This document shows positions 12,218 through 64,000 of a stretch of DNA of 64,000 nucleotides, piece after piece (the stretch's first letter is position 1; every line of letters begins with the position of its first letter). This DNA comes from Naegleria gruberi (Eukaryota): the NCBI GenBank assembly GCA_000004985.1, contig GG738925.1; one strand, given 5' to 3'. A program made the translations under genes and the position numbers. The notes below the pieces were generated by a model, which was not told where the DNA came from, searched no databases, and worked only from the letters and a program-made list of their open reading frames with translations.

Positions 12218-12486
12218 CTTACATAGTTTCCAATATTTAACAAGGAATTTCCTGGATTGATTGCATGGCTTTCACTCGAAATACTACAACGTCTAAAGTT
12301 TTGATCATAGAATAGGAGAGGTCGTTTCCAATTCTCTTCCTCATCATCCACCAACAGATTATTTCCCAGCAATTGATTATTGTCATTAATTATTTGACAC
12401 GTAGCAGGTTCTAAATTTTCAGGATTTGCTGCTGCTTGTTCAAAACCTCGATCAGAGGAGTTTTTAGGAGAAGCAACTTGTTGCAT
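12211..12486 (-). CDS. possible first coding exon of the tandem-kinase gene (91-aa ORF with ATG in A-rich context)
   Basis: ATAAAAATGCAACAAG start context. The ORF ends ...NIGNY then GTAAGT. A 32-nt GTAAGT..CAAAG interval (12191..12222) would join in frame to KEQQVNRESDCLGKNWYYKIYKG of the kinase ORF. That intron would be unusually short, so this is tentative. Confidence 0.3.
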   Translation of the reverse strand: MQQVASPKNSSDRGFEQAAANPENLEPATCQIINDNNQLLGNNLLVDDEEENWKRPLLFYDQNFRRCSISSESHAINPGNSLLNIGNYVSC

Positions 12487-12933: not shown

Positions 12934-15082
12934 GTGATGACCATGAGTGAAGAAAATCAACCTCAATCATCATCACGCTGCTCTTCCCCGACTTGTTCCC
13001 TTAATGATTCAGCATCCTCCTCAATAACAATGGCAACAGTATCATCGGTGGTGACTAAGAGTGATCTGATTTTGAATATTGCTGTTGGGAATAATTTTGG
13101 AGAAGAAGAAGAAGAGCGAGCAAGTGTTGTACAGAATAACTATTATTCAACTCCCTTACATACACATCGAGAAAGTGGGTTGATATCGAGTGCAGTTCCC
13201 TTCACTACTTCACCTCAACATTGTTCATCATCAACATCGATTAAGAGAATGGTTCAGATCAATATTAGTTCGGAGGTTACATTGGGACAAATGAAGAGGT
13301 GTCTCACGAATGTTATGGCTTGTGATATTCATGCTGTATTTGTGAGAGTCCTGTGTTCGAGATGTGAAAATTCATATACACTTCTTGGTGAGACCAATAA
13401 GCTCTATCTTACTGATCAATATTCGGAAAAAACAAAACTCTCATTCAGTAAGGGAGTTGAAATTGAATATAATTTTGAAATGTTGAATTCTATAAGATTG
13501 GAGTTGTATGGTTTTGCAGCAGTTACTTTGAGATCATCCATTGATTATAGTGCATCATATAGTGAGGACGCCAAGTTTATTGGTTTTTCAAGAGATATTG
13601 AACTGATTCATATTGTGAATGGTAAACAATCAAAAATTGAACTGTACTCTGGGAGAGAGACACTGATATCGAGTTTAAATTTACAAAGCGATCTCTACTA
13701 TGAGATTGGTAACAATCAAGAATTGAGAGATTTGATAGAATCAACCAAACGATGTGACCTTGCCGAGTTGGAGACATTATTGACAGAAGTGCCACCAACC
13801 ATTTTCACGGAAACAAACATGATCACTTTCAAATGTAGAGCTATGGGATTGGATAGGAAAGATATATTCGCTCTCAGTGACCCTTTTATTGTGATTTTGA
13901 ATGATGAAAAGGAAATTTTCAGGAGTGAAGTTATTAAGGTAAGTTATTTCTAAAGTTTATTATGTGAAATAATTTCTATTTTTTAAAATTTATAATATTT
14001 AGAATATGCTCGATCCTGAATGGAATAGTTTTTCGATATCTTCATCCAAGCTTTGTGAAAATGACTATAACAAACAATTGAAAGTGAGATGCTATGATTG
14101 GGATTTAATATCTAGTAATGACCTCATTGGAGAGTTTTACTTTACTATTCTCCAAGTACTCAATGGAAATAAGCTCTATGAAATTATAGAGCCAAACCTT
14201 GCCAGAAAGAAAAAGGGATACAAACACTCTGGCATCTTTCAATTTTTACATGTGACAGAGTTTATGGGCAATGAGGAGAGTAAAAATCCAGAAAGAATAA
14301 TCTATGAAAAGATGATATGTTTAAAGAAGAATAAGGAGCTACTCTTCATGGATTATATAGAAGATGGATTCAATCTCTCTCTACACTTTGCAATTAGTTT
14401 CAGTAAGGAAAATTCTTCATTACATTTTCAAGGTAACAAGAATACCTATGAAAGAGTTTTGAAAACCTTTGGAAGAGTATGCGAGTGTTATTGTGATACT
14501 GAATTTTCCATGTATGGATATTCAGCAATCCAAAGAACAGCAAGTTCTCCTCAACAACAGCCATTCTTTACCTTAGACGACATGTATATAAATTCAATGA
14601 AATTTACAGGATACGAGAGAGCAATTAATACCTACCGAACAGGTTTGCAAAATATTGATTTTGATGAATTATCAAATGTGAGAAATCCAAAAACTAATCT
14701 CAATTTTAGAAATGATGATTTCTATCACTTGATTAATCATGTTTCGAACAATGTGGAAGAAAATGAGAAAACCTACAAGGTTCTTGTTATCATGATTAAT
14801 GGAGATGATATTGAGCTACAAAGAACTGTTGATGCACTTGTCGATTGCAGTTCTAAACCCATATCAATAATAATACTAGGAGTTGGATCCTGTTCCTTCT
14901 CCTCCTGTAAAATTCTATTCAGCAATAACCAATTTCAACATGGCTCAACTGGAAAGAAACCAATTCGGTGCAATGTTAAATTTGTTAGACTTCAAGATGT
15001 AAATGAGAATGCCTATTCGAAAATACTTGCAGATATTCCAAAGCAATTTGTAGAATATTATCAAATTAATAAAGTTTTCTGA
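12934..15082 (+). CDS. Copine-like protein (C2 domain(s) plus vWA-like domain). Exons join(12934..13938,14003..15082).
   Basis: C2B-like segment LSDPFIVILNDEKEIFRSEVIK|NMLDPEWNSF...LKVRCYDWDLISSNDLIGEF spans the junction. Donor AAG|GTAAGT at 13939 and acceptor ...ATATTTAG at 14002 give a 64-nt, phase-0 intron. The C-terminal vWA-like region is KVLVIMINGDDIELQRTVDALVDCSSKPISIIILGVG. Confidence 0.8.
13939..14002 (+). other. intron (64 nt) of copine-like gene
   Basis: GTAAGT...TTTAG. Joins two long ORFs in frame within a C2 domain. Confidence 0.8.
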
Positions 15083-25175: not shown

Positions 25176-25993
25176 TTATTCTTGTTGTTGTTTCTTGGCC
25201 AAAGCTACGATATTGTACAAATATTGTTCAGGATTCAAACTCATATAATTCTTGACAACCTTGATTGCATCCTTCAATAAATCACCAGAAGAAGCTCCTC
25301 TATTCATTGGGAACTTTCTTCTACCATCCAATTCAAATACATGGCCATTCTTTTCGACGAAACAAACAAAATGCAAATCTGTTACTTCCACAACTTCACT
25401 TTGATTTTGTTCGGAAAGGGCACTACTTTCGTGAGCTTCCTCAACTCTCTTATCACCTTCCAATGATTTGGCAATTTCTTCAGAACTCTTTCCTACATTT
25501 CCATTGATGAAATCTTGCAAAAAGCTTGAACTTGCAACTTGTAATGATTTGATATTGTTGGCCAAGGAGTGAATAATGGCAACAGTACCACATGCATTTC
25601 CTATTCATTGATTCTTAGATTAGACTTCTTCTTCAATAATTACTTACCAATAGTTTGCTTCATAAAGAATAATTCCTTTGGAATGGAGTCTTGATTCTTT
25701 TCCATTTCTTCATCTTCCTTTTGTTGGAGGTTTTGATTTTCCTTGGTCAAAGGAAACAACAACAAGACGGAAATCACAGGCTTTGGAACCATATCCAACA
25801 ATTCATCATCCAACCCGAAAACATCACAATATTCATAATCGCCTCCCAAGCCTAATTTATTAGCATAATTATTCATGAGCTCTGGATTTGACTCCAATGG
25901 AAACCAAGCTTTTAGATTTTAAGCACAAGAAGTAATAATTTAAGATCAAAATAAATAAATTTCATCAAGCCTCTTTGATAACATACTCTTCAT
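25176..25993 (-). CDS. Ubiquitin carboxyl-terminal hydrolase, UCH-L3-like (peptidase C12). Exons complement(join(25176..25600,25648..25908,25987..25993)).
   Basis: Exon 2 encodes WFPLESNPELMNNYANKLGL...FFMKQTIG|. Exon 3 encodes NACGTVAIIHSLAN...HFVCFVEKNGHVFELDGRRKFPMNRG. Together they contain the UCH active-site Cys region QTIGNACGT and the His region. The 47-nt intron is GTAAGT..GAATAG. The upstream region has no in-frame ATG before a TAA. An ATGAAGA|GTATGT micro-exon with A10 immediately upstream of its ATG splices over 78 nt to AAAAG|CTTGG, giving MKTWFPLESNPE, which parallels human MEGQRWLPLEANPE. Confidence 0.75.
25601..25647 (-). other. intron (47 nt) of UCH gene
   Basis: GTAAGT...AATAG. 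Phase 1. Restores the QTIG-NACGT catalytic motif. Confidence 0.75.
25909..25986 (-). other. intron (78 nt) following a 7-nt first coding exon of UCH gene
   Basis: ATGAAGA|GTATGT...CTAAAAG|CTTGG. Inferred because the conserved W-PLE-NPE N-terminus has no in-frame ATG. Confidence 0.45.
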
Positions 25994-28708: not shown

Positions 28709-31316
28709 ATGGGCAAAGTATTTGTATGGGGAGGCACCATTCTCACGAAACCAACTCTCGTTTCTTTTCTCTCACACATGAACGTGATTCAAGTGGGAAC
28801 AAATAATAGGGATCACTTTTATGTGTTAACAGATATCGGAGAAGTTTTAACATTTACAATTCATGATGTTTCTCGTGAGAGTAGTAAATTTACAAAGATT
28901 GATTTTGAATTGGGAGTAAAGGAAAAAATCATCATGATTGCACCATCTGATTATGGAGTTTTTGCCTTGACGAATTTTGGGAAAATTGTAACGTATTTGG
29001 CTAAGAATGGAAATTCATTCAATCGTTATGAAAAACAGATTTTCAATCCGATGGTTACATTGGATGCATCTAAAATTGTAAAGATTAGTTCAGGAGGACA
29101 TGATTCATTGATTTTGGAAAGAGGTTAGTTTAGTTTGAATAAGCTTTTAACGAAGAGATATCAGAAAGTGGAATGAAAACAGTTGTTTCAACTCGTAATA
29201 CTACATCCGATGAACCGTATTCCTCTGCACCTTTATTAGAAATGAAAGTTCCTTTTGTAACTTCATCGAATTATGCAACATATTACACAGATGGAAATGA
29301 TGATTCAGTGTTGCATCAGATGACTGATAATCAATATTCACTTTATTATTCGAGTAACAGAACTATAATAGATCATATTGGAATTAATAATTGGGTGGGA
29401 GGTTCTGCCAGACATCATCACTCCCTCTTTATTTCCTGTAAGTTTTAAATTTAGTGAAATTATGGAGTGATTGGAATTTCTGTATAATAGCTGATGGATT
29501 AGTTTATTCTTTGGGAAAAAATTACGAAACCTTACTGTGTGGAGAGACAATGATGGAAGATAAAAAGATTACCAAATTGAGTGTGCTAAGGAATGTGGAA
29601 AATGTCTATCAATGCAAAGACTATTTAGAAATTCATGGAAAGAATAAGCATTACTTTTCACTTGCTAGAACCAAGACAGGGCAATTGTTTTCATGGGGAG
29701 GAAATGCTGAAAAGCAATTAGGGATATCGTCAGATAGGAAATATGCGATATTCCCTTGTTTAATTACAGCTCTATATGGAATGAGTAAGTTTCATTTTTA
29801 TAGCAGACTTTTAATCTTTCGTATAGAAATTGCACAAGCAGACTGTGGATATAGTGTAGCTATTGCTCTGTCAGAGAATTACTCAACTGCCTTTTCAGAA
29901 CTGTTAAATAAGGAAACACTTAGTGATTTGAAAATTGAGCTCTATGCTAACAACACATCAGAAACAAAAGTAATTTATTTACACAAATGTATATTATTGG
30001 CTAGATGCCCTACCTTACTAAGTTTAATTTTGAGCGGTAAACTAAACTATTTCTTGAGGAAACTATTGATAGATTCACAAGCAAATTATGAAAATTACCA
30101 AAACAGAGAGAACCTTAAAAATTCAGAACAAGTCACTTCGAGAATAGATTGTACAGATCCTGAGGACAATGAGGATCATATTGCGAATGTTTACAATTCT
30201 TTTTTAGTTGTGCTACACTACCTATATGTTGATGATTTGGATTTTTTATCAATGGATTTAGATAAGAATAGAGAAAATGTGGCAATGGTACAAGAGCTCA
30301 TTAATTTTTTCTACTTCCTCGAGCTGAATTATTTCAATGATGAAACTTTTGTGAGTTATAGTATGGCACTGAGTTGTAATATTGATCATTCTCTTTTGAA
30401 ATCATTTAAGGAATGGAACTTTTCATCGAGGAAATTGGAAAATATGTCTCAAAACAATAGAATGATGAGAGCATTTGCTTTGGATAGTTCCAATTCAAAT
30501 ATTGATACAAAGTTTGCTGAGCAGAGAATTGGAGCTCACATGCTTTCAATTATGGGAAAAGAGGATACTTGTGATGATTACAAATTATCGCTTCAGAGCA
30601 AAGATGGTTCACTCAATGTTTCCCTACCACTTCACAAGGTCATTCTAACAAATTCCATTGAATTTTTCAAGGGAGTATTCGAATCCAATATGGAAGAGGA
30701 AAAGAGAGGTGAAATGCATTTGACCATGGATTCAAGTGAAGATTTATATCTATTCCAATTAGAAAATGTCATTCCTCTCCTTTATCATGCTTATTGTGGA
30801 TCCAATTCTGAGAATGTGCAATACCTATTCATGGATCAATTCGATGCCAACCTCACATTATCAAATGCATGTGAATGCTTGGCAGTGGCCAATTATTTTG
30901 CATCACGAGAGTTTAAAGCTTCATGTGAAACTTTCATTTCCAAATTTATAGCAGTTGAGAATGCAATTCCTCTTCTCCTTGTCTGTGAAACACACGAAGC
31001 ATACAGTCTCAAAGAGCTTGTCATTGATTTTGCAGCTTCACATTTCGAATCGATTCAATTAATTCAAGAGTTTCATGATGAAATTTCTGAGGAAATTCGA
31101 GAACATGTCAAGAAATTGGCTAGAAAGAGATCCAAGAAGATTTTGGACAGAAATATTTTGGAAAAGTATTGGAGGAATGAAATTAAGGAACAGGAGCTTT
31201 TTTATGAACCGAAACCTGCCACATCAAGTAGCTCATCTACAACTTCTACCACTCAATCCTCGAATAGAACAAGAAAACCTTCGATATTTTCCCGACTTTT
31301 CAAAGCATTCCAATAA
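28709..31316 (+). CDS. RCC1-like repeat plus double BTB/POZ domain protein (RCBTB/IBtk-like). Exons join(28709..29123,29183..29437,29491..31316), with an alternative acceptor at 29164/29165 for intron 1.
   Basis: Three ORFs in different frames are joined by GTTAGT..AG (phase 1) and GTAAGT..ATAATAG (53 nt, phase 1) introns. RCC1-type repeats VFVWGG, HFYVLTDIGEVLTF, GVFALTNFGKIVTY, KISSGGHDSLILE and IADGLVYSLGKN continue across the junctions. The C-terminal half has two BTB domains (LSDLKIELYANNTSETKVIYLHKCILLARCPTLLSLI and CDDYKLSLQSKDGSLNVSLPLHKVILTNSIEFF). Confidence 0.7.
29124..29182 (+). other. intron 1 of RCC1-BTB gene (59 nt; a 41-nt alternative ends at 29164)
   Basis: The GTTAGT donor is followed by two AG acceptors (CAG at 29164, ACAG at 29182). 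Both keep the downstream frame. Confidence 0.5.
29438..29490 (+). other. intron 2 of RCC1-BTB gene (53 nt)
   Basis: TCC T|GTAAGT...TATAATAG|CT. Restores IS-S-DGLVYSLGKN. Confidence 0.7.
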
Positions 31317-36872: not shown

Positions 36873-39800
36873 ATGTCTGCAACATCAGCTGCCTCAACAT
36901 CCGACAATACAAAGAAGAGAAAAACATCATTGATGATGGAAGCCTCGGAGGCTACTGAAATTTTTGAAAATGATCAGAATGAAAAGTTGATTGATGAAAT
37001 TTCTGATGCGTTGCATAGATTGTCCCTCCAGAAGCAAACTGAAGAAATGATCAAGAAATTGGTCGAGCAAAAAGATCAAACAAGTGGTGAGAGTAAGAAA
37101 TCATCCACTTTTGATAAACTTGCAATTCTTCAACAAATGCAACAGGAAGAGATGGTAGTGTTAAAAGTTGGTGGTATGTTGTGTGAAATTGTATTTTTAA
37201 CAATCAATTTATTATGATGATTGACAGGTAAATTCTTTTATACAACAATGAAAACTTTGATGGGTGAAAGAGGTAACTCTAAAGTTCAAACAAAGAAAAT
37301 TATTATTGCTGATAAAGTTGGTAAAGCAACTGCTGGTAAGAAGAGAGGTGAAGATGAAGAAGATGAAGAAATGGATGAAGGTGGCGATGAAGAAGGTGGT
37401 GATGAAATGGATGAAGATGGTGAAAGACCAAAAGAAGACGGTATCTCATCACTTGAATATGTTTGTGCTCAAGATAACTTGTTTAAAGTCATGTTTGATT
37501 CTGGTTTTGGTATTGAAAGAGATGAAGCAAACAAGTCTGCAATTTCATTCCCTGACAGAAATCCAGATTATTTCGAATATATTTTAGAACACTTAAGACA
37601 AGGTGGTAAAGTTAAATCTTTGGGTATTGAAAAGTTGAATGCTGACGAATTAGAAAATATTTTAGAAGAATCAAGATATTTTGCAACTGAAAAGTTATCA
37701 GAATATATCTTATTCTTACTTGACAAGTATCACAAATATGATTCAAATTTATCTAATTATGCTGAAATTGAAGAAATTTTGAATGATTCTGTACAAAATT
37801 TGAAAAAGGTTGAAATTCCACTCGAACAAATTCAACAAAGACTCAAATCATTTGAAGATTCAATCAACGAATCCAAGAAGAGTGTTGGTGAATATTCACG
37901 CAAATTGGTTGAACAATATCAAAACTTTATTTTAGGTACTGATTTAGAAAGTGATTTATCTGTAAAGATTGATGTTTCAGGTCAAATTTTCACAATTCCA
38001 TTCACAAGTTTGAGAAAGTATGAGAATTTCCTCCTTTCAAAATACATCTTATCACCAAACTTTGGTTTAAATGAAAATGGTTGTGTATTTATTGATAGAA
38101 ATCCAAAGTTATTTGCCCTTATTCATGGTTACATTATCAGTGGTGGTAAATTTAATCATTTCCCAAAGAATCTTTCACAAGAAAAGAAACTTCAATTGAA
38201 ACAAGAAGCTGAATTCTATGGTTTGACAACACTTGTTCAAGAATATCTTGATCCACTTCGTTATCCAGTTGAAAAGATTGGTAAAGATAATATTGAATTG
38301 AAAGAAAAGGAAGATAAATTGAGAGAAATCTTTGCAAAGGAAAGAGAATCACCATTATTGAATGATCCATATCTTTTATTATCACCCCTCTTCCAAAATT
38401 TAGAAGAAATTAAGAATCAAGAAAAGTATAGAATTGATATTGGTCACTGTCCAAAATTATTAGATTTAACAGATAAGACTAGATATTCTAGACAAGTTTC
38501 TAAACCAAGACTTGTTAATAATTTGAATGGTTTCAAATTGAATTGGCATAGATTCACTCAAGGTGCTTTGGATGGTCTTGATTGGAATAATGTTTTTGCT
38601 GCAGGTGGCGGTATTCTTGGTTGTTGTTTGAAAGATGATAATTTTGATAATAATACTGCAGTCTCAACAATTTATCCAACTTCTGTTAATGAAAGAACTG
38701 AAACAAATACTTCAAGAGCAGTATCAGTCATTGATGATGAAAATGATGAAAATGAAGCTGCTGATTTTGGTTTTTGGAGAAGATTTTCAAAGAAGGCAAC
38801 AACTAAATCTACAGGTGAAGAAGGAGATGAAGAAGAGGAAGAAGAAACAGAACAAAAACAAGAAGTTATTAGCAAGTATCCAATTGGTAGATTCCACAAT
38901 TTAGATTCTATGGGTAATTCTACTTTATACAGTCAATATAGCAGTCATTCCTATGCAAGTCTTGATCAAAGAAAGGCCCGTTCCTCTGAACTTGCTAAAA
39001 CTATTTCTGAATCCACTACCTCAAACAAGGAAAATGCTCGTTTTATCCCTGATGCCAACATTCCTGCTCCATTTAAAAAATCAGATATCGATCTTTTCTT
39101 ATATGCTTTGAGTGAAGAAGAAGCTGAAGAAAAGATTAAACATATTTATCAAACTATCAAGAAGAATATGAGTAGAAGATTATTAATGAATTATGCTGGA
39201 GATAAGATGGAACATAAGGGCTACTATTCTCATTTGAAGGATGAAGAGAAAGCTAAATGTATTTATCAAGATGGTATTATTAGAACTGAAGAAGGTACTT
39301 TGATCAATGATGACGTTTTGGTTGTTAGAACTAAATTTGCTGTCACATTCTATTGTTACAAACTCAGACCAATTCAAGTTGTTTTGAGAATTTACAAATC
39401 ACCTGCAGAAGTTTTGTTAGGTTTTGATATTGATTGTGCAACTATGGGTTTTGATGGAAATCAAGTTTGGTCAAGTGCAAGAGCAAGAAGAGCTTTAATG
39501 TATCATACTAATCTTGTTGATGTTGATAGACAATCTACAACTTATGAATATAGATTGTACAAGTATAGTAAGAGAGGTTTCTCTGTTTCAATTCCAGGTT
39601 ATGATACTGCTAAAGTTCAAAATCAATTGTTACAATATCCACGTAGATTCCCATTCACTTCAACTGAATATTTGTTGCACGGTTTAGCAAGACTTATTGC
39701 TTTTGATAATTCTTGTCGTGCTAAGAATCCAAAACATATTTTAGGTGTTTATGATGATCGTGATCCAAATGCAGCTCAATTAAGAGAAGAAAATAAGGCT

Positions 39801-40787
39801 CTCATCCTTTCTGGTGAATTGAATGTAAAGTCAGACTATCTTGATTTGAATATTATCAAATCATATAAGTATCCTCCAAGCTTTATCTTTACTACTTTAG
39901 AAAAGACTCGTCAGATTGTATCACTTATTAATTTGAAACCTGAAGAACAAAGAGACATTAAGAATTGGCGTGATAGAGAAAAGATTAGAAGAACTTTCAG
40001 AAAAGGAGAAAGTGTTAAATTTGATAGTAGATTGAAAAATAATACTAATATCAAAATGGAAAGAGATCCAGATTGGAAACCTCACTTTATTTATTCTTTG
40101 AATGATATTGATACTGTTCTCAATAGTGAAAAGTTTGATGCAAGAATCTCCAACAAGATTCAATTCCTTACCGTTGATCCAGGAACTCAGAAAATTGGTT
40201 CCTTCCATCCAAAGGATATTAACTTTTATAGAGATGCCTATCAACCAGTTCCATTCTCTAAATTACCAATTTTGAAGGAAGCCAAGATGAGAACTGTTTG
40301 GTTCAAGGCAATGACTGAACTCCCTCCTCAACATGTTATCGACGAAAGAGAAAAACATGTTAAGGAAAATACAAACCAATACGGTTTTTATAATGATAAT
40401 AAGGATTACACCAAGGATCCATTCGAAGAAAGATATCAAAAATTCTCAATGTCCAGACCAAATCCAAATTCACAAAACATCTATGACAAGTGGGTTCAAG
40501 AAGAAATTTGGTTTGAAGCATTCACACCAGAAGAAAGCAACAAGATTGAACAAGAGTTTAGAAAGTTTATTGTTTATGGAAATCCTGAAAGCTTTGCAAT
40601 TTCAGGATCTGAACTTATTGACTTCTCCTATTGGAGACTCTTCCTTGATAGTAACCATCCAACTCATCCAAACACTGCTGCTGCCTTGCATAGAAAGAAT
40701 TTCTGTGAATCTGGTCATTACTTTGGAGGAATTGATGAAGATCAAGTTGGTACTGTTACAACCCTCTCTTACAGATCTTTCTATTAA
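36873..40787 (+). CDS. Large protein with two T1/BTB (K-channel-tetramerisation-type) domains. Exons join(36873..37173,37228..40787).
   Basis: A 54-nt intron GGT G|GTATGT...TGACAG|GT joins ORFs 36873..37217 and 37221..40787 (the second starts at TTG in the track). T1/BTB-like segments FKVMFDSGFGIERDEANKSAISFPDRNPDYFEYILEHLRQGG and VKIDVSGQIFTIPFTSLRKYENFLLSKYIL...GCVFIDRNPKLFALIHGYIISGG. Acidic D/E tracts. The remaining roughly 800 aa are unassigned. Confidence 0.65.
37174..37227 (+). other. intron (54 nt)
   Basis: GTATGT...GACAG. Phase 1. Both sides encode Gly. Confidence 0.65.
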
Positions 40788-41814: not shown

Positions 41815-43917
41815 ATGAAAGAAATACCTATTTCAAACGACAGGATGTCACTTCAAAAAAAAATGGTCAACAAGGTTTGCCTATTAATTCTGCTTGCTGT
41901 GTCTCTGTTGCTCTTTGCTTCAGTCACTTGTGAGAATATTGTCTATTCTACTACAACCTACATGGATGGAACGCTCGTTCCTTCATTCGAAACTAATGTT
42001 GAAACTAACCTATTCAACTCTACCAATCCAAACTCCAGATCCCTCCAAGAAGATTGTACATTGTGTCCAGTTGGTGGTGATTGCACATGTGCAGGTACTT
42101 GTCCAGTTTCTTCATATGATTACAAGGACTTTTTCATCAAGACAACTTGTCCAAATGGTTTCTACTTGACTTCCTTGAGTCTTCAATGTAGAACAAGTGT
42201 TATTGGTGATTCAAAAGTTTTTATTCTTTCTCCAAGTGAATTTGATATTTACAAGGCAGATGATACGAAACTTCCAGCTATTCGATTCAACACTAATAAT
42301 TGTATTGATTATCGTTTTAACATTACAGAAGATCAAACTCTTGTTTACTATTGGTTAGATTTAAGACCTGCTGTGTATACAGCAAAGTGGTGGTTTAAAT
42401 TTGTTGGAACTTGCAACAAAATTCAAGCTGGTCAACCTGTCAGAATGGATGTTCAGCCGTCAGTTGTTACCTTAACAAACACAACATTTTTTGACATTTC
42501 AACAACTCTATACGATAGAAACAATATCATCGCTGGTAATGCAGAAGGAGAAATGCGTCTTGTTGTTGATCCAGCTCAAAATCAAGGTTTCCAATTAACA
42601 AGTAGCTCACCAGTTTTGTGGGGAAACTCAACTTTTAAATTAATGAAATTCAAAACAGCTCTTCCACAAGTTGTGTACCAAGTGTTCTATACGAATGGTA
42701 ACTATTCCATTAACGAAACAAGAACCATGAATATGACAGGAGATCAAGTTACATTCATTTGTAACATTCCAAAATATATGATTATTAATCAAGTAGTGAA
42801 TGTTGATTTCGCTCTTGTGGATAGTCAAAATCAAGTAGTCCAATCTGTGAGTTCTAATTTTGCTAAACTTGGTTCTCCACAACTTGGTTCAGATTGCATG
42901 TATTATTTAACAACTGAAGGTATCTTTCGATATGTTTCACCAGCAGAAAGAGATATTCCATTAACAAGAGGAAGAGGCTCAATGACTTTGAGAGCTCCAA
43001 TGACTGTAAGAAGTAATAGTTTTTACATTGATCTCTATTACATGCTACGTACGAAAACTTATTTCACATTCGAAACAACTGGACCTCCATATGATGCACA
43101 AATCACTATTATTGATGGAGAGTTTGGAAGTGGAACAGATACTGCATTCTCAGTTTCAATTTATGATGGAAAAATGGAATATAGTCCCTCACTTGTTAAG
43201 GCATGTTCAGATGTTGTGAAAATTGTTTCAGATCCTCCATTAGAAGGGTTTCCAGTGGAAAGTAAGGCAGTGGAGGGAGTTGCTTTGTTTAATACCATGT
43301 TAATTAGTGATCCTAGAAATATCAAGTTGCAAATACTTGTCAATAATCAAGCATTGACAAGTAAGAATGTTAGAGTTGGAGATAATGTCAAGTTAGCTCT
43401 TTCAGTTGACAAGTATTTGATATCACCAGGTGATTCATTCTATGGAAATATCTCAATTTATGACATGTTTGATAACTTTTTAAACATGTCTACTGGAAAT
43501 GCATTCCTTAACATTACCTATAATGGAAATCAATTCATGAAAATTAATTCCAAAGTTGTTAATGGATTTTGCATGTTTTCACCAAGTTCAATTCCAAAAA
43601 TTTACACTTCTCGAGTTTACATTCAAGCTGGATTCTACAGTCAATTCAACCAATTATTCCTATCAGAAACATTTGAAATGCAAGTTTACAATTTGTCACC
43701 TTACCCTACTCCAAAACCAACCATTAGTCCAATGATGAGTAAAAAGGCAGAACACTCAAGTGGTGGTAATAATCCAACAAATCCATCTAAACCTTTGAAT
43801 TCTGTTCAAATTCCAGCCATCAAATCCAATAATCAAAGAATTAACAATGCCAATTCTGTTAACATTGGTTCTGTAATTCTTCTTGTGTTCTTCCTCTTTT
43901 TGATAAGCATGCATTAA
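41815..43917 (+). CDS. Ser/Thr/Asn-rich surface/secreted protein with N-terminal signal peptide, Cys-rich module and C-terminal hydrophobic anchor
   Basis: MVNKVCLLILLAVSLLLFASVTC signal-like segment. CTLCPVGGDCTCAGTCPVSSYDY Cys cluster. Many N-x-S/T sites. C-terminal IGSVILLVFFLFLISMH (GPI-like or TM). Confidence 0.55.
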   Translation: MKEIPISNDRMSLQKKMVNKVCLLILLAVSLLLFASVTCENIVYSTTTYMDGTLVPSFETNVETNLFNSTNPNSRSLQEDCTLCPVGGDCTCAGTCPVSSYDYKDFFIKTTCPNGFYLTSLSLQCRTSVIGDSKVFILSPSEFDIYKADDTKLPAIRFNTNNCIDYRFNITEDQTLVYYWLDLRPAVYTAKWWFKFVGTCNKIQAGQPVRMDVQPSVVTLTNTTFFDISTTLYDRNNIIAGNAEGEMRLVVDPAQNQGFQLTSSSPVLWGNSTFKLMKFKTALPQVVYQVFYTNGNYSINETRTMNMTGDQVTFICNIPKYMIINQVVNVDFALVDSQNQVVQSVSSNFAKLGSPQLGSDCMYYLTTEGIFRYVSPAERDIPLTRGRGSMTLRAPMTVRSNSFYIDLYYMLRTKTYFTFETTGPPYDAQITIIDGEFGSGTDTAFSVSIYDGKMEYSPSLVKACSDVVKIVSDPPLEGFPVESKAVEGVALFNTMLISDPRNIKLQILVNNQALTSKNVRVGDNVKLALSVDKYLISPGDSFYGNISIYDMFDNFLNMSTGNAFLNITYNGNQFMKINSKVVNGFCMFSPSSIPKIYTSRVYIQAGFYSQFNQLFLSETFEMQVYNLSPYPTPKPTISPMMSKKAEHSSGGNNPTNPSKPLNSVQIPAIKSNNQRINNANSVNIGSVILLVFFLFLISMH

Positions 43918-44055
43918 TAAACTTTATGAATTCGAATAATATTTCAATAGTTGCATTGTAATCATTTTCATTTTCCTTCGAATTAACGAAACTTTCTGTT
44001 TTTGGGATTATTGTTAATCACTAAAATACAAATTTACTAGAAATATATCAATAAA

Positions 44056-45233
44056 TTAAGGAGAAAGTAAATACTTGAGTAAGGCACAATACCAAATAAT
44101 ATTTTTAGGTTCTTCCAATTTAGTATTAGTAATATCCAAATGTAAACTTTCAAAATTATCATAGGCAAATTTATCAGCTTGCTTATTTGAAATTATTCTC
44201 TTTTCTTTCTTATCTTTCTTGGTTGAGATTAGAATAACTTCTGCCTTTGAAGCATGCTTCTTGATTGTTTCTGCTTTTTCTTTCATTGATTCAGATGCAA
44301 AATTATTAGAAGGATCGATCAGTAATAGAACAACTGATGCATTTCTGTAAAATGACAAAGAAACTCGACTATAACGCTCTGGTCCAGATTGATCCCACAA
44401 TTGCTATAATTGACTTGATTGATTTAAGAGCTAATGTTACTTACCATCTTGATTTTGGTAGTATCTCCAAATTGGAAATTCTTGATTCCAAAATCAACTC
44501 CAATTGTTGGGATGTGATGATTTCTTGAAGCATTCACTGGTATTTCATTCATTGCACAATTAAACAATGAAGTCTTTCCACTTGCATAATCACCATCCAA
44601 AACTACCTTTGTCAGAAAATCATACTCTGGTCTGGGTTTAGATTCAGCAGTTACCTTGGTCTCAGGAATACTATTAGTACTATTAGATATAGTAGTACTT
44701 GAACTACTTGCAGGATTCTTTGCAAACATTGATCCAATAAATGATAAGGCACCACTGAAAAATCCTCTTGATGATGAATTGCTCTCATCAACTTTCTGGA
44801 CTGGTTTTGGAGGTGGAATCATTGGTTGATCTGTCAAATCAGAGAATCTTTTAAAACATTCCTTCAAAACACTCAATTCCACATCAACCCACTTTTCTTT
44901 GATTGAACATGATCGAATATCTTCAGAAACTGATGAAATCTTTGCCAATTTACAAGCAAAATCATAAACCCCTTTACGTAATAAATATCTAATAAATTTC
45001 CTTCCTTGTTTTGAATGTAAAAATTGATCCAAATCAGCAAATTGTAATTTCGGATTTAAATTCGTTAATTGTAAAATTGATTTTTCATAATAATCCCAAA
45101 TTAATTCATAGCAAATTCGTTGCCAATATTTACAAACTCGAGAGAAGGTAACAAGCAATTCTACATGACTGATATGAGAGAGAATTTCTCCGATCAAATC
45201 GTTGGGTAAAACTTCAAAGATGTTTTGTGCCAT
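44056..45233 (-). CDS. F-box domain fused to a divergent Rab-like small GTPase domain (catalytic Gln replaced). Exons complement(join(44056..44403,44445..45233)).
   Basis: N-terminus MAQNIFEVLPNDLIGEILSHISHVELLVTFSRVCKYWQRI is a canonical F-box. The C-terminus aligns along its length with Rab: EYDFLTKVVLDGDYASGKTSLF (P-loop GxxxxGKT), TIGVDF (switch I), IKM|QLWDQSGPERY (DTAGQE has become DQSGPE) and ILISTKKD (NKxD has become TKKD). There are no C-terminal Cys prenylation motifs. A 41-nt intron ATG|GTAAGT...ATTATAG|CAA restores the switch II region. Confidence 0.7.
44404..44444 (-). other. intron (41 nt) of F-box/Rab-like gene
   Basis: GTAAGT...TTATAG. Phase 0. Joins ...TKIKM to QLWDQSGPERY. 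Confidence 0.7.
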
Positions 45234-45538: not shown

Positions 45539-47497
45539 ATGCCGTGTGATACCAATAATGACGCCTCTGACACCGTTGCCTCCGCACCAGCATCATTCAT
45601 GTACGAAGAAATAACATGTAATGAGCTTCTACTGCTTCATTCATATAATTCACAAATTAAAAAGTGGATAAAAACTGACGCTCATGAAAATACTCATGAA
45701 TTTTATATGGAACGGGAAGATTCCGATGATGATGATGATGATGAAGATGATGAAGATTATGTAGAGGATAATCAAGTTGATGATGAAGAAAAGGTTGATA
45801 ATGAAAAGAATTTATTCGAAAGAAGAATGATATTTAATTCTGTGAGGGGTAGAACTACAGAACTTGGATATTTGGATCCGTGTGATGATTATCACATCAG
45901 AGAATATAATGATGATTGGGGACGTGTGGAGGAAGTTGAGGAAATTAATATTGGACTATTTTATAATCACCTTTCGAATGAAAATTTTGTAGAGGAGAGG
46001 GAAAAGTTTACCTATGAATGGAAAGATAACATTCTCTGTTTTAGAATAATGCCATATGATTTTGACTCTTTGGGAAAATATGACATGATGAAAGTTATTG
46101 GTGAGATTGAGAATGAAAATTATGCGAAACAATTTGTTGAGGAACAGATTGAATATACGAAATCACCAGAAACAAAGGTCAATTATATGGAATTTGTGAA
46201 TAATCATGCCATTGTTTCAGTATTTGATTATCTTGATACATGTTTCTTGTTGAAAACATGCTCAAAAGTTTCTTCGGAATGGCACAAAATGTTGTTTTAC
46301 AATTCACATATTCAAAATCATATTTTCAAAGGTAGATTACTGGATTTATTCGATGGACAATTTGACCATTTGAGTCGCTTGAATGAGTTTTATAATTTGA
46401 ATTGGTTGGAAACTTATCTGATGAGTGGTGCGTTCGTTTTTGAAATGTTTCAAGAGGGATTGTTAGGTCAATTGGAACACTTTGCTCATTTAAATGCAGT
46501 TGAAGTAGAGCAATTCTTTTACATTGTTCTCAAATTAGATCCTCTTCCTCATCTGGTTGATGATTTGAAGGATGATCATCCACTGATTAATAGATTGAAA
46601 CTCTTACCCCCAAAGAGAGTACTGTTCAGTGTTAATACTCTACCAGAGGTAAAGAGAATGGTATTCAAAAGAGGATTTTTAACACATCTTTTGAGTGTGG
46701 AAGATAATTGTGATCCTGAAGTAGTGATGGAAAAAATTCTTATGGCCAAATGTGTAATTCCAATTCAAGATTGCGAATTTTCAGTAGATTTCAAGAAGGG
46801 AATTTCTTTATATGACGAATTTTTGAAAGAACTTTCTTCAAAATTATTATCATTTAGAATACCATCAAAAAAGACAGATTCAGAATTGGATTGGGCTGCC
46901 AATTGTCTCTGTGAAATGAGAGAAAAGGCTAGCTATTTCATTCACAATATTATTCCCGCCCATCCATTTACCAAGCTTTGTGTGGATGATGATATTCTCA
47001 TTGGACTCCATCTACTCTTACTCGATAACATTTATTCTAAAATTGACTTTCTAACAAACATTCCAATCCTCAACTTTTTGGAATTATTGGAAAATAGAAA
47101 GAGGAATGAATTGACCAATATCAAATCCCTCCTTCCTGAAAAATTCCAATCCAACCTATTTGAAATGATGTTACAAGAACCATCACCATATCAATTTACA
47201 TCTGATTCTCTCACTCCATTTAATCAACCATCAAATTTATTAGAATTTTTAACAGAACATGTTATTGAACCGAGTGAAATTTATCAAGAAAATAGAAAAT
47301 TCTCTGAATGGATTGATAGGGATATTGAGGAATATTTGAAATTCATTAAAACATTCCACACCAAGTCAATTACACCACCTAAACATGTTGACATGTTATT
47401 TCACTTTCACATGTTACATCCAAACAATTACATGCCAGATTGTTTGAGAATTGCAAGATCAATCAAGAATCACAAATTTAACTTTATTAAAAATTAA
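45539..47497 (+). CDS. F-box-like domain protein with poly-Asp/Glu tract (652 aa)
   Basis: Poly-A ATG context. Internal F-box-like segment HAIVSVFDYLDTCFLLKTCSKVSSEWHKML. DDDDDDEDDED tract. Confidence 0.5.
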   Translation: MPCDTNNDASDTVASAPASFMYEEITCNELLLLHSYNSQIKKWIKTDAHENTHEFYMEREDSDDDDDDEDDEDYVEDNQVDDEEKVDNEKNLFERRMIFNSVRGRTTELGYLDPCDDYHIREYNDDWGRVEEVEEINIGLFYNHLSNENFVEEREKFTYEWKDNILCFRIMPYDFDSLGKYDMMKVIGEIENENYAKQFVEEQIEYTKSPETKVNYMEFVNNHAIVSVFDYLDTCFLLKTCSKVSSEWHKMLFYNSHIQNHIFKGRLLDLFDGQFDHLSRLNEFYNLNWLETYLMSGAFVFEMFQEGLLGQLEHFAHLNAVEVEQFFYIVLKLDPLPHLVDDLKDDHPLINRLKLLPPKRVLFSVNTLPEVKRMVFKRGFLTHLLSVEDNCDPEVVMEKILMAKCVIPIQDCEFSVDFKKGISLYDEFLKELSSKLLSFRIPSKKTDSELDWAANCLCEMREKASYFIHNIIPAHPFTKLCVDDDILIGLHLLLLDNIYSKIDFLTNIPILNFLELLENRKRNELTNIKSLLPEKFQSNLFEMMLQEPSPYQFTSDSLTPFNQPSNLLEFLTEHVIEPSEIYQENRKFSEWIDRDIEEYLKFIKTFHTKSITPPKHVDMLFHFHMLHPNNYMPDCLRIARSIKNHKFNFIKN

Positions 47498-51398: not shown

Positions 51399-53015
51399 AT
51401 GAATATTTTCAAATGTTCAATCTCCTCCGATAAATCAAACAATAACCAACAACAAGAACATTTAGCAAGAGAAGATCCTGTCACTCATCAATTAATTGTA
51501 AATCAAAAGAAAAAAAAGAAAAATCAAACTTTACCGCCAAACAGTTTTACTTTAATTGGAACGAATAATAAGAATTACATTTACAAACCATTAAAAAAAT
51601 TAAGTAGTGGAGCATCAAATACAAGTGACGTTTGGCAGATTGAATTAATTGAACCACATGATATAAAAGGAATTTATGCCTTAAAAAGAATTAAATTAGA
51701 TGATATAGATAATTATGATTATGGATCAAATTTATTACTAAAACAGACAATTGACATGAATATTGATAAGAATTGTGTCAATTCAACAACTCTTTCAGAT
51801 TTGGAACATTTAAATATTGTAAAATATTTTGATTCTTTCATTTCTCAAAATATTGGCGGGAAATATTTAAATATTTTACAAGAATTTTGCATTACTTCAT
51901 TACAAAAACTTTTTGATTTGAAACAGGACATTCCAATAAGTTATCAGATTCAATGGTCACTTCATATTGCACAAGCTTTGAAATATATTCATGACGAATG
52001 TAAAATAATTCACAGAGATGTTAAACCTGATAATATTTTATTGAAAAAAGTTATTTCTAATAATTTACCTAATTTGGCAAATTTAAATAATAATAATTTG
52101 AATAATAATTCGAATAATAATAGTGCGAATAATGATGGTGGTGCAAATAATGAGAAACAGAATAATTTATCAATTAATACAACAATTCAAGTGAATAATG
52201 GAAATTCCAATCAGAATTTTACAAATATTAATAATGAAAAGAGTCCTGCCTCTCCACAATCCAAACTCATTATCAAACTTGCTGATTTTGATTATGCAAA
52301 GAAGGTTGATTTGAGTAATGCCAAAACATTTGTTGGAAGTCAGGAATATTTTGCACCAGAAATTATTAACAGTTTAAATAATTACAATCTCTCAAAGAGT
52401 AATGGAATGTATCAGTCATGTGGTAATAATGGAGTTGGCAGTAGTAGTACTACTACTAGTAGTAATGGTTCTAATCATACAAATGATAGATATTACTATA
52501 CTCATAAGGTAGATATTTGGTCATTTGGAATTGTTGCCTTCCAGCTCATTAAACCAATTTATCGATTGAACATTCCCAAATTTAGAGAAGAATTGCAAAA
52601 GAATCCAAATTATGTGAAGGAATTATTGAAAGATCACTTGAATATTTCCTCTTCAAATTTTGAAACTCAAAGAAAACCTCAATCTCTTCCCAACTCTAAT
52701 AATCATCTCTATTTACAATGCCTGGCTCAGATCATTGTTGATTGTTTACAATTGGATCCAACAGCAAGACCAGAAGCTAAAGATATTGTAAGAAATATTG
52801 AAATTATATATTATAGTACCTATACCAAATTCAATTCCCCTGTAAAACCACCAAATCAACAACAACAAACTACTTTAGGTAGTTCAACAATTAATGAACC
52901 ACCTCCAAATAGTGTTCTGACTCGAACGAGTCTGAGCAGTGATAAATCCTCCTCATCAACACAAGAAGGAATCAATCATGATACAGCTTGTCTACTTAAT
53001 AAATCATTGATGTGA
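51399..53015 (+). CDS. Ser/Thr protein kinase with Asn-rich low-complexity insert
   Basis: IYALKRIK (VAIK-like), HRDVKPDNILL, LADFDYAKK (DFG variant DFD), GSQEYFAPE. About 70 aa of N/S-rich insert between subdomains VIb and VII. A-rich ATG context. Confidence 0.75.
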   Translation: MNIFKCSISSDKSNNNQQQEHLAREDPVTHQLIVNQKKKKKNQTLPPNSFTLIGTNNKNYIYKPLKKLSSGASNTSDVWQIELIEPHDIKGIYALKRIKLDDIDNYDYGSNLLLKQTIDMNIDKNCVNSTTLSDLEHLNIVKYFDSFISQNIGGKYLNILQEFCITSLQKLFDLKQDIPISYQIQWSLHIAQALKYIHDECKIIHRDVKPDNILLKKVISNNLPNLANLNNNNLNNNSNNNSANNDGGANNEKQNNLSINTTIQVNNGNSNQNFTNINNEKSPASPQSKLIIKLADFDYAKKVDLSNAKTFVGSQEYFAPEIINSLNNYNLSKSNGMYQSCGNNGVGSSSTTTSSNGSNHTNDRYYYTHKVDIWSFGIVAFQLIKPIYRLNIPKFREELQKNPNYVKELLKDHLNISSSNFETQRKPQSLPNSNNHLYLQCLAQIIVDCLQLDPTARPEAKDIVRNIEIIYYSTYTKFNSPVKPPNQQQQTTLGSSTINEPPPNSVLTRTSLSSDKSSSSTQEGINHDTACLLNKSLM

Positions 53016-61947: not shown

Positions 61948-64000
61948 TTGGCCTTCTCAACATCTTCTTGGATTCTTTTGTAGGCATTCATCCACTTAAT
62001 TTCAGCAAATATATATCCAATTGTTTTGCTTGAAAGACCTAACCCTGCCCTAGTCAAGTTGGTGATGAGTGTGAGAGTACTACTATTGTGTGGATTATTA
62101 GCTTCTTTAACTTCCGATTCCTTGAATCTCTTTTTCCAAATATCCTTATTTGAGTTTGGATCAATTTCTAGCATAAATGGAACAAATTCTTCTAATTGTA
62201 GTCTATCTTTCTCGAATTTAACGAGAACTTTACTTTCTCCCATTTCTGTCCAATATTCTGTTACATCTCTGAATGCAATAATGAAGAAAGTGTTCAATTT
62301 GGAAAGGAAATATTGATTGCTCTCAAAACAAACAGGATCGGCCATAATAATGTCATTAATAAGAGTTTCTCTTTCTTCTGTTGGAACTTCTTGATAGATA
62401 GATCCTAAAATTTCAATAACAGCTTCTCTCTTCAGAGGTGATTTGGAGTCCTTAGCATAATTGTTCCATTTTGCTCTTAATGCATGTAAGGCAAGTGAAA
62501 CACTTGCACCGAATGCTGGATCATTAAGACCCTCCATAGATTTACAAAATTCCAGAATATCCTTAGCATTGTTAGTAAACTTGTTTGAATGGAATTAAAT
62601 ACTTACAGCGTACTTGGCTCTAAACTCTTCGCAAGCAGTCAAAAACTCAAAGCTGACCTTATGTACAATCTCAGGTAATACAAACAATTGATCCAAAACA
62701 TCATACAGCAGATAATCAATGCTTTTTACCTCCTTTTGAGGCTGTCTATAATCTTTGTAGTGTTGTACATATGTATCTAAAATAATCTCTCTCACTTCCT
62801 TTAAGGTCATCTTTCTTGTTGTCACATCTGTAATAATCTTATTTCCATATCTCGATTTATAAACATCCCATATTTTGCTCATTGCTTGAGTATTTGGTGA
62901 AATACCAATTCTGCTTAGGGTTGGTTTGAGGAAAGTGAACTTCTCATCTTCTTCAAGAGGGTCTACAACTTCACATTCAAGAGGAAGAATAGGATCGAAA
63001 TTAGGATTGTTAATGGCGTCCTGCATATTTGGATGGTTTTTGTAATAATGCAATTGAGAGTGAATAAGTTTCATATGAGTAACACCATGGGGTACTTCAA
63101 CCACTTCTGGAGTGTACTGAGGTGTGATTGTTGAACGATGAGCAAGTTTGAATTTACCATCACTTTTAGAAAAGAATACTTCTATTGAAGATCTCAAACT
63201 CAAAGCATCCAGGCCCATCATTGGTGAAGTTGTATCATTACTCACACAAAATGCAAGTTTTGGCTTTTTCTTTTGTTGATCTTCGGCTTTTGTTTTGATT
63301 CTAAGAGTGTTTTCGTCCAACTTATTCACTTTTTCGTGAATTATCATCATTTCATTATTCAGTAACTGAGCATCAGAAACAAATTCTGTCTTTATGGTCG
63401 ATTTCTGTAAAATGGATTAGTTAGAATGGCCACACATTTCAACTTACATCTACTTGCTTAGCTTGATGGATTTCAAATGAGTAGTCTTCAATCCTTCTAT
63501 TTTCAAGCATTTCCAATTGCTCGTGTAACTTTGTGAGTACTGATAGATCTTCTTGTATATCATGCATATCTTTCTTATCTTTCATCTGGAAACGTTTCAT
63601 TACAAAGTATCTCTTCTTCTTTGTTTCGTTGTCTTCCTTATAGGATCTTAAAAACTTAATTTCAGTTCTTAATTTAGTATTGTTCTTTTCAGTTTCGTCG
63701 AGTTTTGCTCTTAATTCCTTATAGGATTGCTCAGTACTCTTTTTAAGATTTGAACACTCCTCTTTCAGTTTCTCATGAGCTGCAGTAAGCTTTTTTAATT
63801 CTTCTCTACAGTCGCTGTGTACTCGTTTTTCATTAGACAATTCTTTTACAAGCTTTCCCTTTTCAAGCTCACTCTCTGAAATGAGTTCATAATCTGCTGC
63901 AGCTTTTTTCATTTCATCCAGCAGTCCAATATCTCTGTCGTTCACTACTAACGAATAAAAAGGTACTTTAAATCTATCATCCACCTCTGATTTAACAAAT
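61944..64000 (-). CDS. Hypothetical protein with N-terminal coiled-coil. Exons complement(join(61944..62561,62608..63404,63448..>64000)). The 5' end lies beyond the window.
   Basis: Three ORFs are joined in frame. GAT|GTAAGT...TTTTACAG (43 nt) joins ...HQAKQVD to KSTIKTEFVSD... and GCT|GTAAGT..TTTACTAACAATGCTAAG (45 nt, with a TACTAAC branch site) joins ...EEFRAKYA to DILEFCKSMEGLNDPAF.... The frame is open to base 64000 upstream of the annotated GTG start. Confidence 0.6.
62562..62606 (-). other. intron (45 nt) with canonical TACTAAC branch-point
   Basis: GTAAGTATTTAATTCCATTCAAACAAGTTTACTAACAATGCTAAG. The alternative 27-nt AG (..AAACAAG) is too close to the donor. Confidence 0.6.
63405..63447 (-). 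other. intron (43 nt)
   Basis: GTAAGTTGAAATGTGTGGCCATTCTAACTAATCCATTTTACAG. Phase 0. Joins the coiled-coil exon to the downstream ORF. Confidence 0.6.

Follow-up and report, generated by a model that had tools for sequence, protein, structure and literature searches.

The window analyzed here, a 64,000-nt stretch of Naegleria gruberi contig GG738925.1, contains on its minus strand a two-exon gene (44056..45233; ATG at 45233..45231, TAA at 44058..44056) encoding a protein of 378 amino acids (aa), in which an N-terminal F-box is joined to a C-terminal, divergent Rab-like G domain. According to the reading that we favor, and to which we give an even chance of being right, this F-box protein of the Naegleria lineage has a Rab-like G domain at the place otherwise taken by WD40, LRR, or Kelch domains, and it would act as a substrate receptor of a Skp1/Cul1/F-box (SCF) ubiquitin ligase. 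The gene is a new ortholog within a family that was catalogued in Naegleria in 2021, and the architecture itself is not new. All coordinates are positions in the window, and all features of this gene are on the minus strand.

The window is AT-rich (∼33% G+C), and long open reading frames (ORFs) crowd both strands. On the minus strand, an ORF of 269 aa (45233..44424) is followed head to tail by an ORF of 114 aa (44400..44056). In our gene model, these are joined by removal of a 41-nt GT-AG intron in phase 0 (44404..44444; GTAAGT...TATAG; GTAAGTAACATTAGCTCTTAAATCAATCAAGTCAATTATAG), which lies between Met263 and Gln264, with exon 1 (44445..45233) encoding aa 1–263 and exon 2 (44056..44403) encoding aa 264–378 and the stop codon. 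The length of this intron is not divisible by 3, and it contains an in-frame stop. When it is kept in, the frame ends after ...KIKMVSNISS; when it is removed, ...TTKIKM is fused to QLWDQSGPER... and the product is 378 aa long. A family hidden Markov model (HMM), i.e. a profile made from relatives, matches the stop-to-stop ORF of exon 1 at its positions 1–250 (E = 2.3e-89) and exon 2 at its positions 251–366 (E = 6.8e-51). The two ORFs abut exactly at positions 250/251, with no residue missing or duplicated. When the spliced protein was aligned with two annotated N. gruberi proteins, there was no gap at the junction, and in four paralog variants found on metagenome contigs (P0003, P0004, P0159, and P0160) single uninterrupted ORFs read ...KIKLQLWDQCGPER... 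over it, indicating that splicing recreates a sequence found unbroken elsewhere. The intron is identical in an environmental variant of the gene (L001, described below). One N. fowleri relative is split at another position, inside the P-loop, so that the intron is specific to this gene lineage. Candidate introns of 41–64 nt of the same GTAAGT...AG type, joining long open frames, are also present elsewhere in the window, on the minus strand (12182..12222, 25601..25647, and 63405..63447) and on the plus strand (13939..14002 and 29438..29490). The 41-nt intron therefore matches the style of the genome, and the ORF list of the window under-represents its true gene models. The family HMM found no second copy of the family in the window.

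The predicted splice at 44444..44404 is thus backed by four agreeing independent lines, and the two-exon gene model is sound. This bears out an earlier note, made from the letters of this DNA alone, that had proposed the 41-nt intron, because HMM abutment, ungapped paralogs, and in-frame stop all agree. The same note had placed the intron exactly in switch II, which is incorrect, because it sits three codons before the Asp of the DxxG motif, at the end of strand β3 and just before switch II. It had also considered splicing necessary to see the homology. This is only partly true, because the ORF of exon 2 alone gives Pfam Ras and Roc matches, and exon 1 holds the P-loop and switch I.

The F-box occupies aa 7–46 (45096..45215; EVLPNDLIGEILSHISHVELLVTFSRVCKYWQRICYELIW). 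It had been called canonical by eye from the motif LPNDLIGEILSHI...VCKYWQRI, at aa 9–40, and a profile search now agrees, with two Pfam models scoring above their curated cut-offs: F-box-like (PF12937) at aa 7–46 (29.3 bits, cut-off 24.3) and F-box (PF00646) at aa 9–41 (28.7 bits, cut-off 20.5). Structural features, here and below, are taken from the predicted structure of a paralog, P0001 (56% identical), made with a 20-sequence family alignment, and not from the window protein itself. The predicted fold is a three-helix F-box that superposes on a Skp1-bound F-box at 2.0 Å. In comparison with the N. gruberi ortholog (the corrected model of XP_002670359.1, described below), the F-box is the best conserved of all regions of the protein, with 94% identity, arguing that its docking function is under selection. 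Docking on SCF via the F-box is a reasonable inference.

The C-terminal domain (aa ∼201–378; 44059..44633, interrupted by the intron) is Rab-like as assessed by Pfam and by sequence and fold matches in the PDB. The Pfam Ras model matches aa 209–346 with an E value of 2.7e-21 and a score of 76.3 bits, well over the cut-off of 21.6, so the Rab-like domain that had been proposed from the sequence is clearly recognized by a small GTPase model. In a phmmer search of PDB sequences, the top 60 matches were all Rab/Ypt/Sec4 proteins (Rab1B, Rab8A, and Rab11A among them), with E values of ∼1e-19. When the G domain of the P0001 model was used in Foldseek, Rab8, Rab1, and Sec4 were matched at target-normalized TM-scores of 0.81–0.85. 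Among the RabF motifs, a set consisting of IGVDF, KLQIW, RFRSIT, YYRGA, and LVYDIT (Pereira-Leal and Seabra), IGVDF is exact in the window protein, KMQLW and FYRNA are close, RYSRVS is a partial match only, and LLIDPS is weak. Paralog P0001 keeps RFRSIT.

Translation of the spliced gene verified the P-loop, switch I, and switch II sequences that the earlier note had reported, including the replacement of the catalytic Gln by Pro. The G1 motif or P-loop, GDYASGKT (aa 214–221; 44571..44594), is intact and conforms to the canonical GxxxxGK[ST]. The G2 motif or switch I, TIGVDF (aa 243–248; 44490..44507), is RabF1-like and has the conserved Thr. In the G3 motif or switch II, WDQSGPER (aa 266–273; 44374..44397), the Asp and Gly of the canonical DxxGQ are kept, and the position of the Rab catalytic Gln is taken by Pro271 (44380..44382), giving DQSGP for DxxGQ. 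The G4 motif, TKKD (aa 324–327; 44212..44223), is a variant of NKxD. It had been listed as a further defect, which it is not, because [TN]KxD motifs of the TKKD type are the norm in the family; Rac and Cdc42, too, normally have TKxD as G4. At the position equivalent to G5, which in the paralog model lies after strand β6 and before helix α5, the Rab TSAK is replaced by an altered motif with TNT for SAK, ITNTK (aa 354–358; 44119..44133). The C terminus (...YCALLKYLLSP) has no CC, CXC, or CaaX motif, and the last Cys (Cys369) is inside helix α5. C-terminal prenylation cysteines are thus missing, as had been noticed before, and none of the relatives in the family alignment has a prenyl motif at its C terminus.

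At the level of sequence, DxxGP is a hallmark of the clade. Switch II is covered by 17 relatives, of which 10 have Pro after DxxG, and Asn, Leu, and Gly occur there once each. Of the others, one has a Gln with a shifted Gly, and switch II is degenerate in four. Most relatives keep the P-loop and [TN]KxD, although GKN is found in P0030 and GRT in P0061. Both this protein and most relatives preserve G1, the Thr of switch I, Asp and Gly in DxxG, and Lys and Asp in [NT]KxD, which argues that nucleotide binding has been retained. In this copy, nucleotide binding is probably under selection, and intrinsic GTP hydrolysis is probably slow. In Ras, Q61P lowers GTPase activity. TBC-type GTPase-activating proteins (GAPs) of Rabs provide a Gln in trans, and the loss of the Gln in cis is therefore no proof of a GTP-locked state in the cell. 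It had been proposed that the domain is a pseudoGTPase or is nucleotide-independent. The catalytic Gln is indeed gone, but the motifs for nucleotide binding remain, and hydrolysis is the only step plausibly impaired, so that the label "pseudoGTPase" would be apt in part at most.

Between the F-box and the G domain, the earlier note had seen a Ser-rich linker. Variable low-complexity linkers are present, but so are a conserved helical region and an amphipathic helix that this description omits. The helical region (aa 47–135, ∼90 aa; 44829..45095; GRKFIRYLLRK..., WVDVELSVLKECFKRFSD) follows the family pattern GRKFIRYLLRK and WVDxELxxLKxxFxxFSD, is 68% identical to the ortholog, and is predicted to be helical with a predicted local distance difference test (pLDDT) score of 80–90. 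When compared with the PDB by Foldseek, it gave no match. It is followed by a variable, Pro/Ser-rich linker 1 (aa 136–155; 44769..44828), which is 35% identical to the ortholog and has a pLDDT below 50 in the paralog model. A variable, Ser/Thr/Asn-rich linker 2 (aa 173–200; 44634..44717), which is 25% identical and disordered in the paralog model, precedes the G domain. Flanked by these fast-evolving linkers, the amphipathic helix (aa 156–172; 44718..44768; RGFFSGALSFIGSMFAK) forms a conserved island with 76% identity to the ortholog. Its pattern is kept across paralogs. The helix is hydrophobic, its polar face consists of Ser/Gly, its hydrophobic moment across paralogs is 0.35–0.59, and it resembles, as far as these sequence features go, a lipid-packing sensor (ALPS-like) motif. 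In the P0001 model (aa 162–173), it is helical, isolated, and undocked, with a pLDDT of ∼50. This helix may be a stand-in for the missing prenyl anchor, or it may contact a partner.

As a whole, the P0001 model consists of an N-terminal helical domain (aa ∼9–132), two disordered linkers, the isolated helix, and a complete Ras-type α/β domain. It has a mean pLDDT of 79 and a predicted TM-score (pTM) of 0.80. Because the pTM is this high despite ∼100 low-confidence residues, the model suggests a packing of the N-terminal helical domain on the G domain.

The ortholog of the window protein is the corrected model of N. gruberi XP_002670359.1 given in Table S8 of Herman et al. (BMC Biol 19:142, PMC8296547), with which it shares 70% identity over its full length (378 aa) and 74% over the G domain. 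A word-indexed protein search had missed this sequence, which we identified from the corrected version in the table. That search returned only two matches, both from N. gruberi, i.e. XP_002677004.1 (56% identity; named "rab family small GTPase," with an F-box Pfam match on record) and XP_002671413.1 (53% identity). When 1.84 billion representative proteins were searched exhaustively with a profile, about a dozen full-length representatives were found. Those with a species name are all from N. gruberi, N. fowleri, or N. lovaniensis, and the others are metagenome proteins. Other long, high-scoring sequences, including P0007, P0009–P0011, and P0017, are tandem or merged Rab models without an F-box, and were set aside as not being relatives in architecture. 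A pattern scan with two clade-specific motifs found no bacterial or archaeal relatives in 185,579 genomes. As far as these searches reach, the family is restricted to Naegleria.

No identical full-length protein was found; only the exon 2 ORF (114 aa) has an identical copy, in metagenome run ERR1078381. A 2.7-kb contig from that run, L001 (European Nucleotide Archive ERZ929261, PRJEB11402), is 98.7% identical to window positions 42293..45005, and the same or a sister Naegleria strain therefore occurs in that metagenome. In the coding sequence of the gene there are seven differences, of which six are synonymous and one, Tyr204 to His, is not. With its ORF intact and six of seven coding differences synonymous, the gene looks constrained.

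In a re-annotation of Ras-superfamily genes from N. gruberi and N. fowleri, Herman et al. described Naegleria-specific Rab-like clades with N-terminal F-boxes (PMC8296547, Supplementary Material 4). One subgroup of these clades has a CaaX motif, and there are disrupted members, which the authors interpret as rapid birth-and-death evolution. The commonest extra domain is the F-box, which is fused also to Rho, Ran, and Gα domains, and BTB domains are fused to Ras and Arf domains. For such fusions, these authors independently proposed "GTPase-dependent ubiquitination" (PMC8296547). The corrected XP_002670359.1 model in their Table S8, tagged "Rab ... F-box," starts with MAQNIFEVLPNDLIGEVLSHISHVELLVTFSQVCKYWQRICYELIW and contains WDQCGPERF. 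Given a full-length identity of 70% between it and the window protein, we regard it as the ortholog. The three N. gruberi accessions named here are all absent from the N. fowleri orthology sheet of that paper, which fits an expansion of the subgroup on the N. gruberi side. The terms "switch II," "catalytic glutamine," "pseudoGTPase," and "GTP hydrolysis" do not occur in its supplementary files, and in that supplement the Gln-to-Pro hallmark and the amphipathic helix appear to have gone unremarked. Novelty of the architecture was considered and rejected, because it is already known in Naegleria (PMC8296547); combinations of an F-box with a Rab-like domain occur also in the trypanosome protein TbFRP (PMC3593210) and in Legionella effectors (bioRxiv 10.1101/350777).

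How might such a protein work? In the reading that we favor, the N-terminal F-box would dock on Skp1 and Cul1, and the Rab-like domain and the conserved helical region would jointly bind a partner or substrate. The F-box is intact and the most conserved region, and there is no WD40, LRR, or Kelch domain; a Pfam scan of the window protein found no other recognizable substrate-binding domain, making the Rab-like domain (with the helical region) the likely partner-binding part. Guanine nucleotide would be bound and, with Pro for the catalytic Gln, hydrolyzed slowly, so that the protein would be mostly GTP-bound or reliant on a factor acting in trans. In a protein without a prenyl anchor, the amphipathic helix between the flexible linkers may provide membrane or partner contact. 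Overall, the protein would be the Cullin-1 counterpart of Rab40 (Cullin-5) and RhoBTB (Cullin-3). We infer Skp1 binding, nucleotide state, membrane binding, and the existence of any substrate from the features above. That GTPase-adaptor fusions can serve as ligase receptors is illustrated by Rab40 in Cullin-RING ligase 5 (CRL5) and by RhoBTB with Cul3 (PMC8129794, PMC10509765, PMC4931677). The suggestion of the earlier note that Rab effectors or GAPs are brought to the ligase is speculation. Several points weigh against the reading as a whole. Paralogs P0024, P0030, P0045, and P0061 have a degenerate P-loop or switch II, which suggests that nucleotide binding is dispensable in some members. 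TNT for SAK in G5 and the Pro in switch II could distort effector binding, and the nucleotide and partner properties may differ from those of any Rab. The predicted interdomain packing comes from one number, the pTM score. For TbFRP, the F-box was tied by the authors to the protein's own turnover, not to substrate targeting (PMC3593210), and Herman et al. stated that no specific functional prediction is possible (PMC8296547).

Turnover is indeed the core of one rival explanation, which we consider unlikely: the F-box would mainly limit the abundance of the Rab-like protein itself, through SCF auto-ubiquitination and fast turnover, making it a short-lived signaling GTPase and no substrate receptor. 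Auto-ubiquitination is common among F-box proteins. The TbFRP authors proposed the same for their protein and saw rapid proteolysis (PMC3593210), and RhoBTB proteins are substrates of their own Cul3 complexes (PMC4931677). However, self-turnover and substrate targeting are not mutually exclusive, and self-turnover alone leaves the conserved ∼90-aa helical region and the amphipathic helix unexplained. The protein might alternatively belong to a Skp1 complex that is not an SCF and acts in membrane traffic, with the Rab-like domain serving for targeting. The model for this is yeast Rcy1, for which a non-SCF Skp1 complex has been reported. The Rab-derived G domain, the intact F-box, and the conserved amphipathic helix, which suggests membrane contact, would all suit such a role, but the argument is purely one of analogy, and no feature separates it from a role in SCF. 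In addition, the occurrence of F-boxes on Rho, Ran, and Gα domains and of BTB on Ras and Arf domains (PMC8296547) points more to a general GTPase-ligase theme. We therefore hold a traffic complex to be quite improbable.

The explanation to which we give the least credence, and which seems very improbable, is that the gene is a decaying or neutral product of lineage-specific birth and death, encoding a dead, nucleotide-free pseudoGTPase scaffold or being an incipient pseudogene. It draws on the rapid birth and death of genes in these clades and their disrupted members (PMC8296547), on the degenerate P-loop or switch II of the four paralogs named above, and on the lost catalytic Gln. This copy, however, has an intact ORF, a canonical intron, and G1–G4 motifs that are kept; its identity to the N. 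gruberi ortholog is 70% overall and 94% in the F-box; and it shows six synonymous changes for one non-synonymous change relative to L001. Decay is disfavored by the intact ORF and by this pattern of conservation. Returning to a role as SCF substrate receptor, we also considered a more specific joint proposal, which is doubtful. The family would be a third, independently evolved class of GTPase-type cullin receptors, working with Cul1/Skp1, held GTP-bound by DxxGP, and reaching membranes via the ALPS-like helix rather than a prenyl group. If this were true, ubiquitination would take place at particular membranes and would be scaled by expression level, not by a GTPase cycle, and the expansion of the family in free-living Naegleria would reflect diversified substrate or compartment specificity.

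If the favored mechanism is right, Naegleria has wired small-GTPase modules straight into SCF ligases, providing a natural experiment in coupling membrane identity or signaling to ubiquitination, comparable with Rab40 and RhoBTB in animals. In practical terms, this analysis yields a correct gene model of two exons and identifies the ortholog. Small additions are the Gln-to-Pro change in switch II across the clade and the amphipathic helix, which offer concrete, testable handles and leave the picture of the family unchanged.

The gene is flanked by two plus-strand ORFs. The divergent neighbor (45539..47497, 652 aa), which starts 305 bp upstream, has an acidic N terminus and no Pfam match at E ≤ 0.001; one stretch, VFDYLDTCFLLKTCSKVSSEWHKMLF, is F-box-like by eye only, and we make no claim about it. 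The convergent neighbor (41815..43917, 700 aa), whose stop codon is 138 bp from that of the F-box gene, has no Pfam match, and its product, which is hydrophobic in an N-terminal segment and in the C-terminal tail (VILLVFFLFLISMH), is possibly a surface or secreted protein. In comparison with the window, L001 has a 4-bp indel in intergenic sequence immediately beyond the stop codon of the F-box gene, and 14-bp and 3-bp indels inside the convergent ORF, of which the 14-bp one would shift the frame. Further away on the plus strand, a 1188-aa ORF (37221..40787) has two matches to BTB_2 (T1-type BTB/POZ; E = 7e-17), and a candidate 54-nt intron (37174..37227) links it to an upstream open frame. In a protein-kinase ORF (51399..53015, plus strand), the Pkinase model is matched in three separate stretches, which suggests that the kinase domain contains insertions or introns that are not annotated.

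Among known systems, the window protein is closest to the Naegleria F-box Rab-like clade of Herman et al., with which it shares the order of an N-terminal F-box, a conserved extension, and a divergent Rab-like domain. The window protein, corrected XP_002670359.1, XP_002677004.1, and XP_002671413.1 have in common WDQ[CS]GPER, TKKD, and the lack of a prenyl motif. The window protein differs in having Ser for Cys in WDQSGPER, and in its intron, which XP_002677004.1 and XP_002671413.1 lack. In another lineage of Discoba, TbFRP from Euglenozoa (Tb927.7.3790; PMC3593210) similarly has an F-box upstream of a C-terminal Rab-related G domain. Its authors proposed a link to ubiquitination and did not find an ortholog in N. 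gruberi. A FYVE domain at the N terminus of TbFRP binds phosphatidylinositol 3-phosphate, whereas the window protein has no FYVE match in Pfam at E ≤ 1. A subset of the Legionella Rab-domain effectors (bioRxiv 10.1101/350777) carries an F-box or U-box, and the hosts of these bacteria are amoebae including Naegleria. Because the scan of 185,579 bacterial and archaeal genomes found no relative, there is no evidence of direct transfer, and a Legionella origin of the clade is unsupported. Another fusion between an E3 ligase module and a Rab came up in the exhaustive protein search: P0118 (487 aa) carries a U-box at its N terminus (Pfam E = 6.5e-7) and a canonical Rab domain at its C terminus.

Rab40 and RhoBTB are the GTPases to which the proposed mechanism is most directly compared. 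Rab40 retains the catalytic Gln and is prenylated. Like the window protein, it combines a Rab-type G domain with a cullin-adaptor docking motif, and its GTPase is the substrate-binding part (PMC8129794, PMC10509765). Docking is by a C-terminal SOCS box (Elongin B/C and Cul5) in Rab40, in contrast to the N-terminal F-box of the window protein, for which Skp1 and Cul1 are predicted. Pfam finds no SOCS box in the window protein, which ends straight after helix α5. The Rab40 fusion and the Naegleria F-box/Rab fusion arose independently. RhoBTB (PMC4931677) is also similar to the window protein in joining an atypical GTPase domain to a cullin-docking module, but it differs in having a Rho-family G domain, two BTB domains used with Cul3, and another domain order. 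For RhoBTB, an autoinhibitory intramolecular contact between the GTPase and adaptor domains has been proposed as a means of regulation (PMC4931677), which parallels the packing of the N-terminal helical domain against the G domain suggested by the pTM of 0.80 of the P0001 model.

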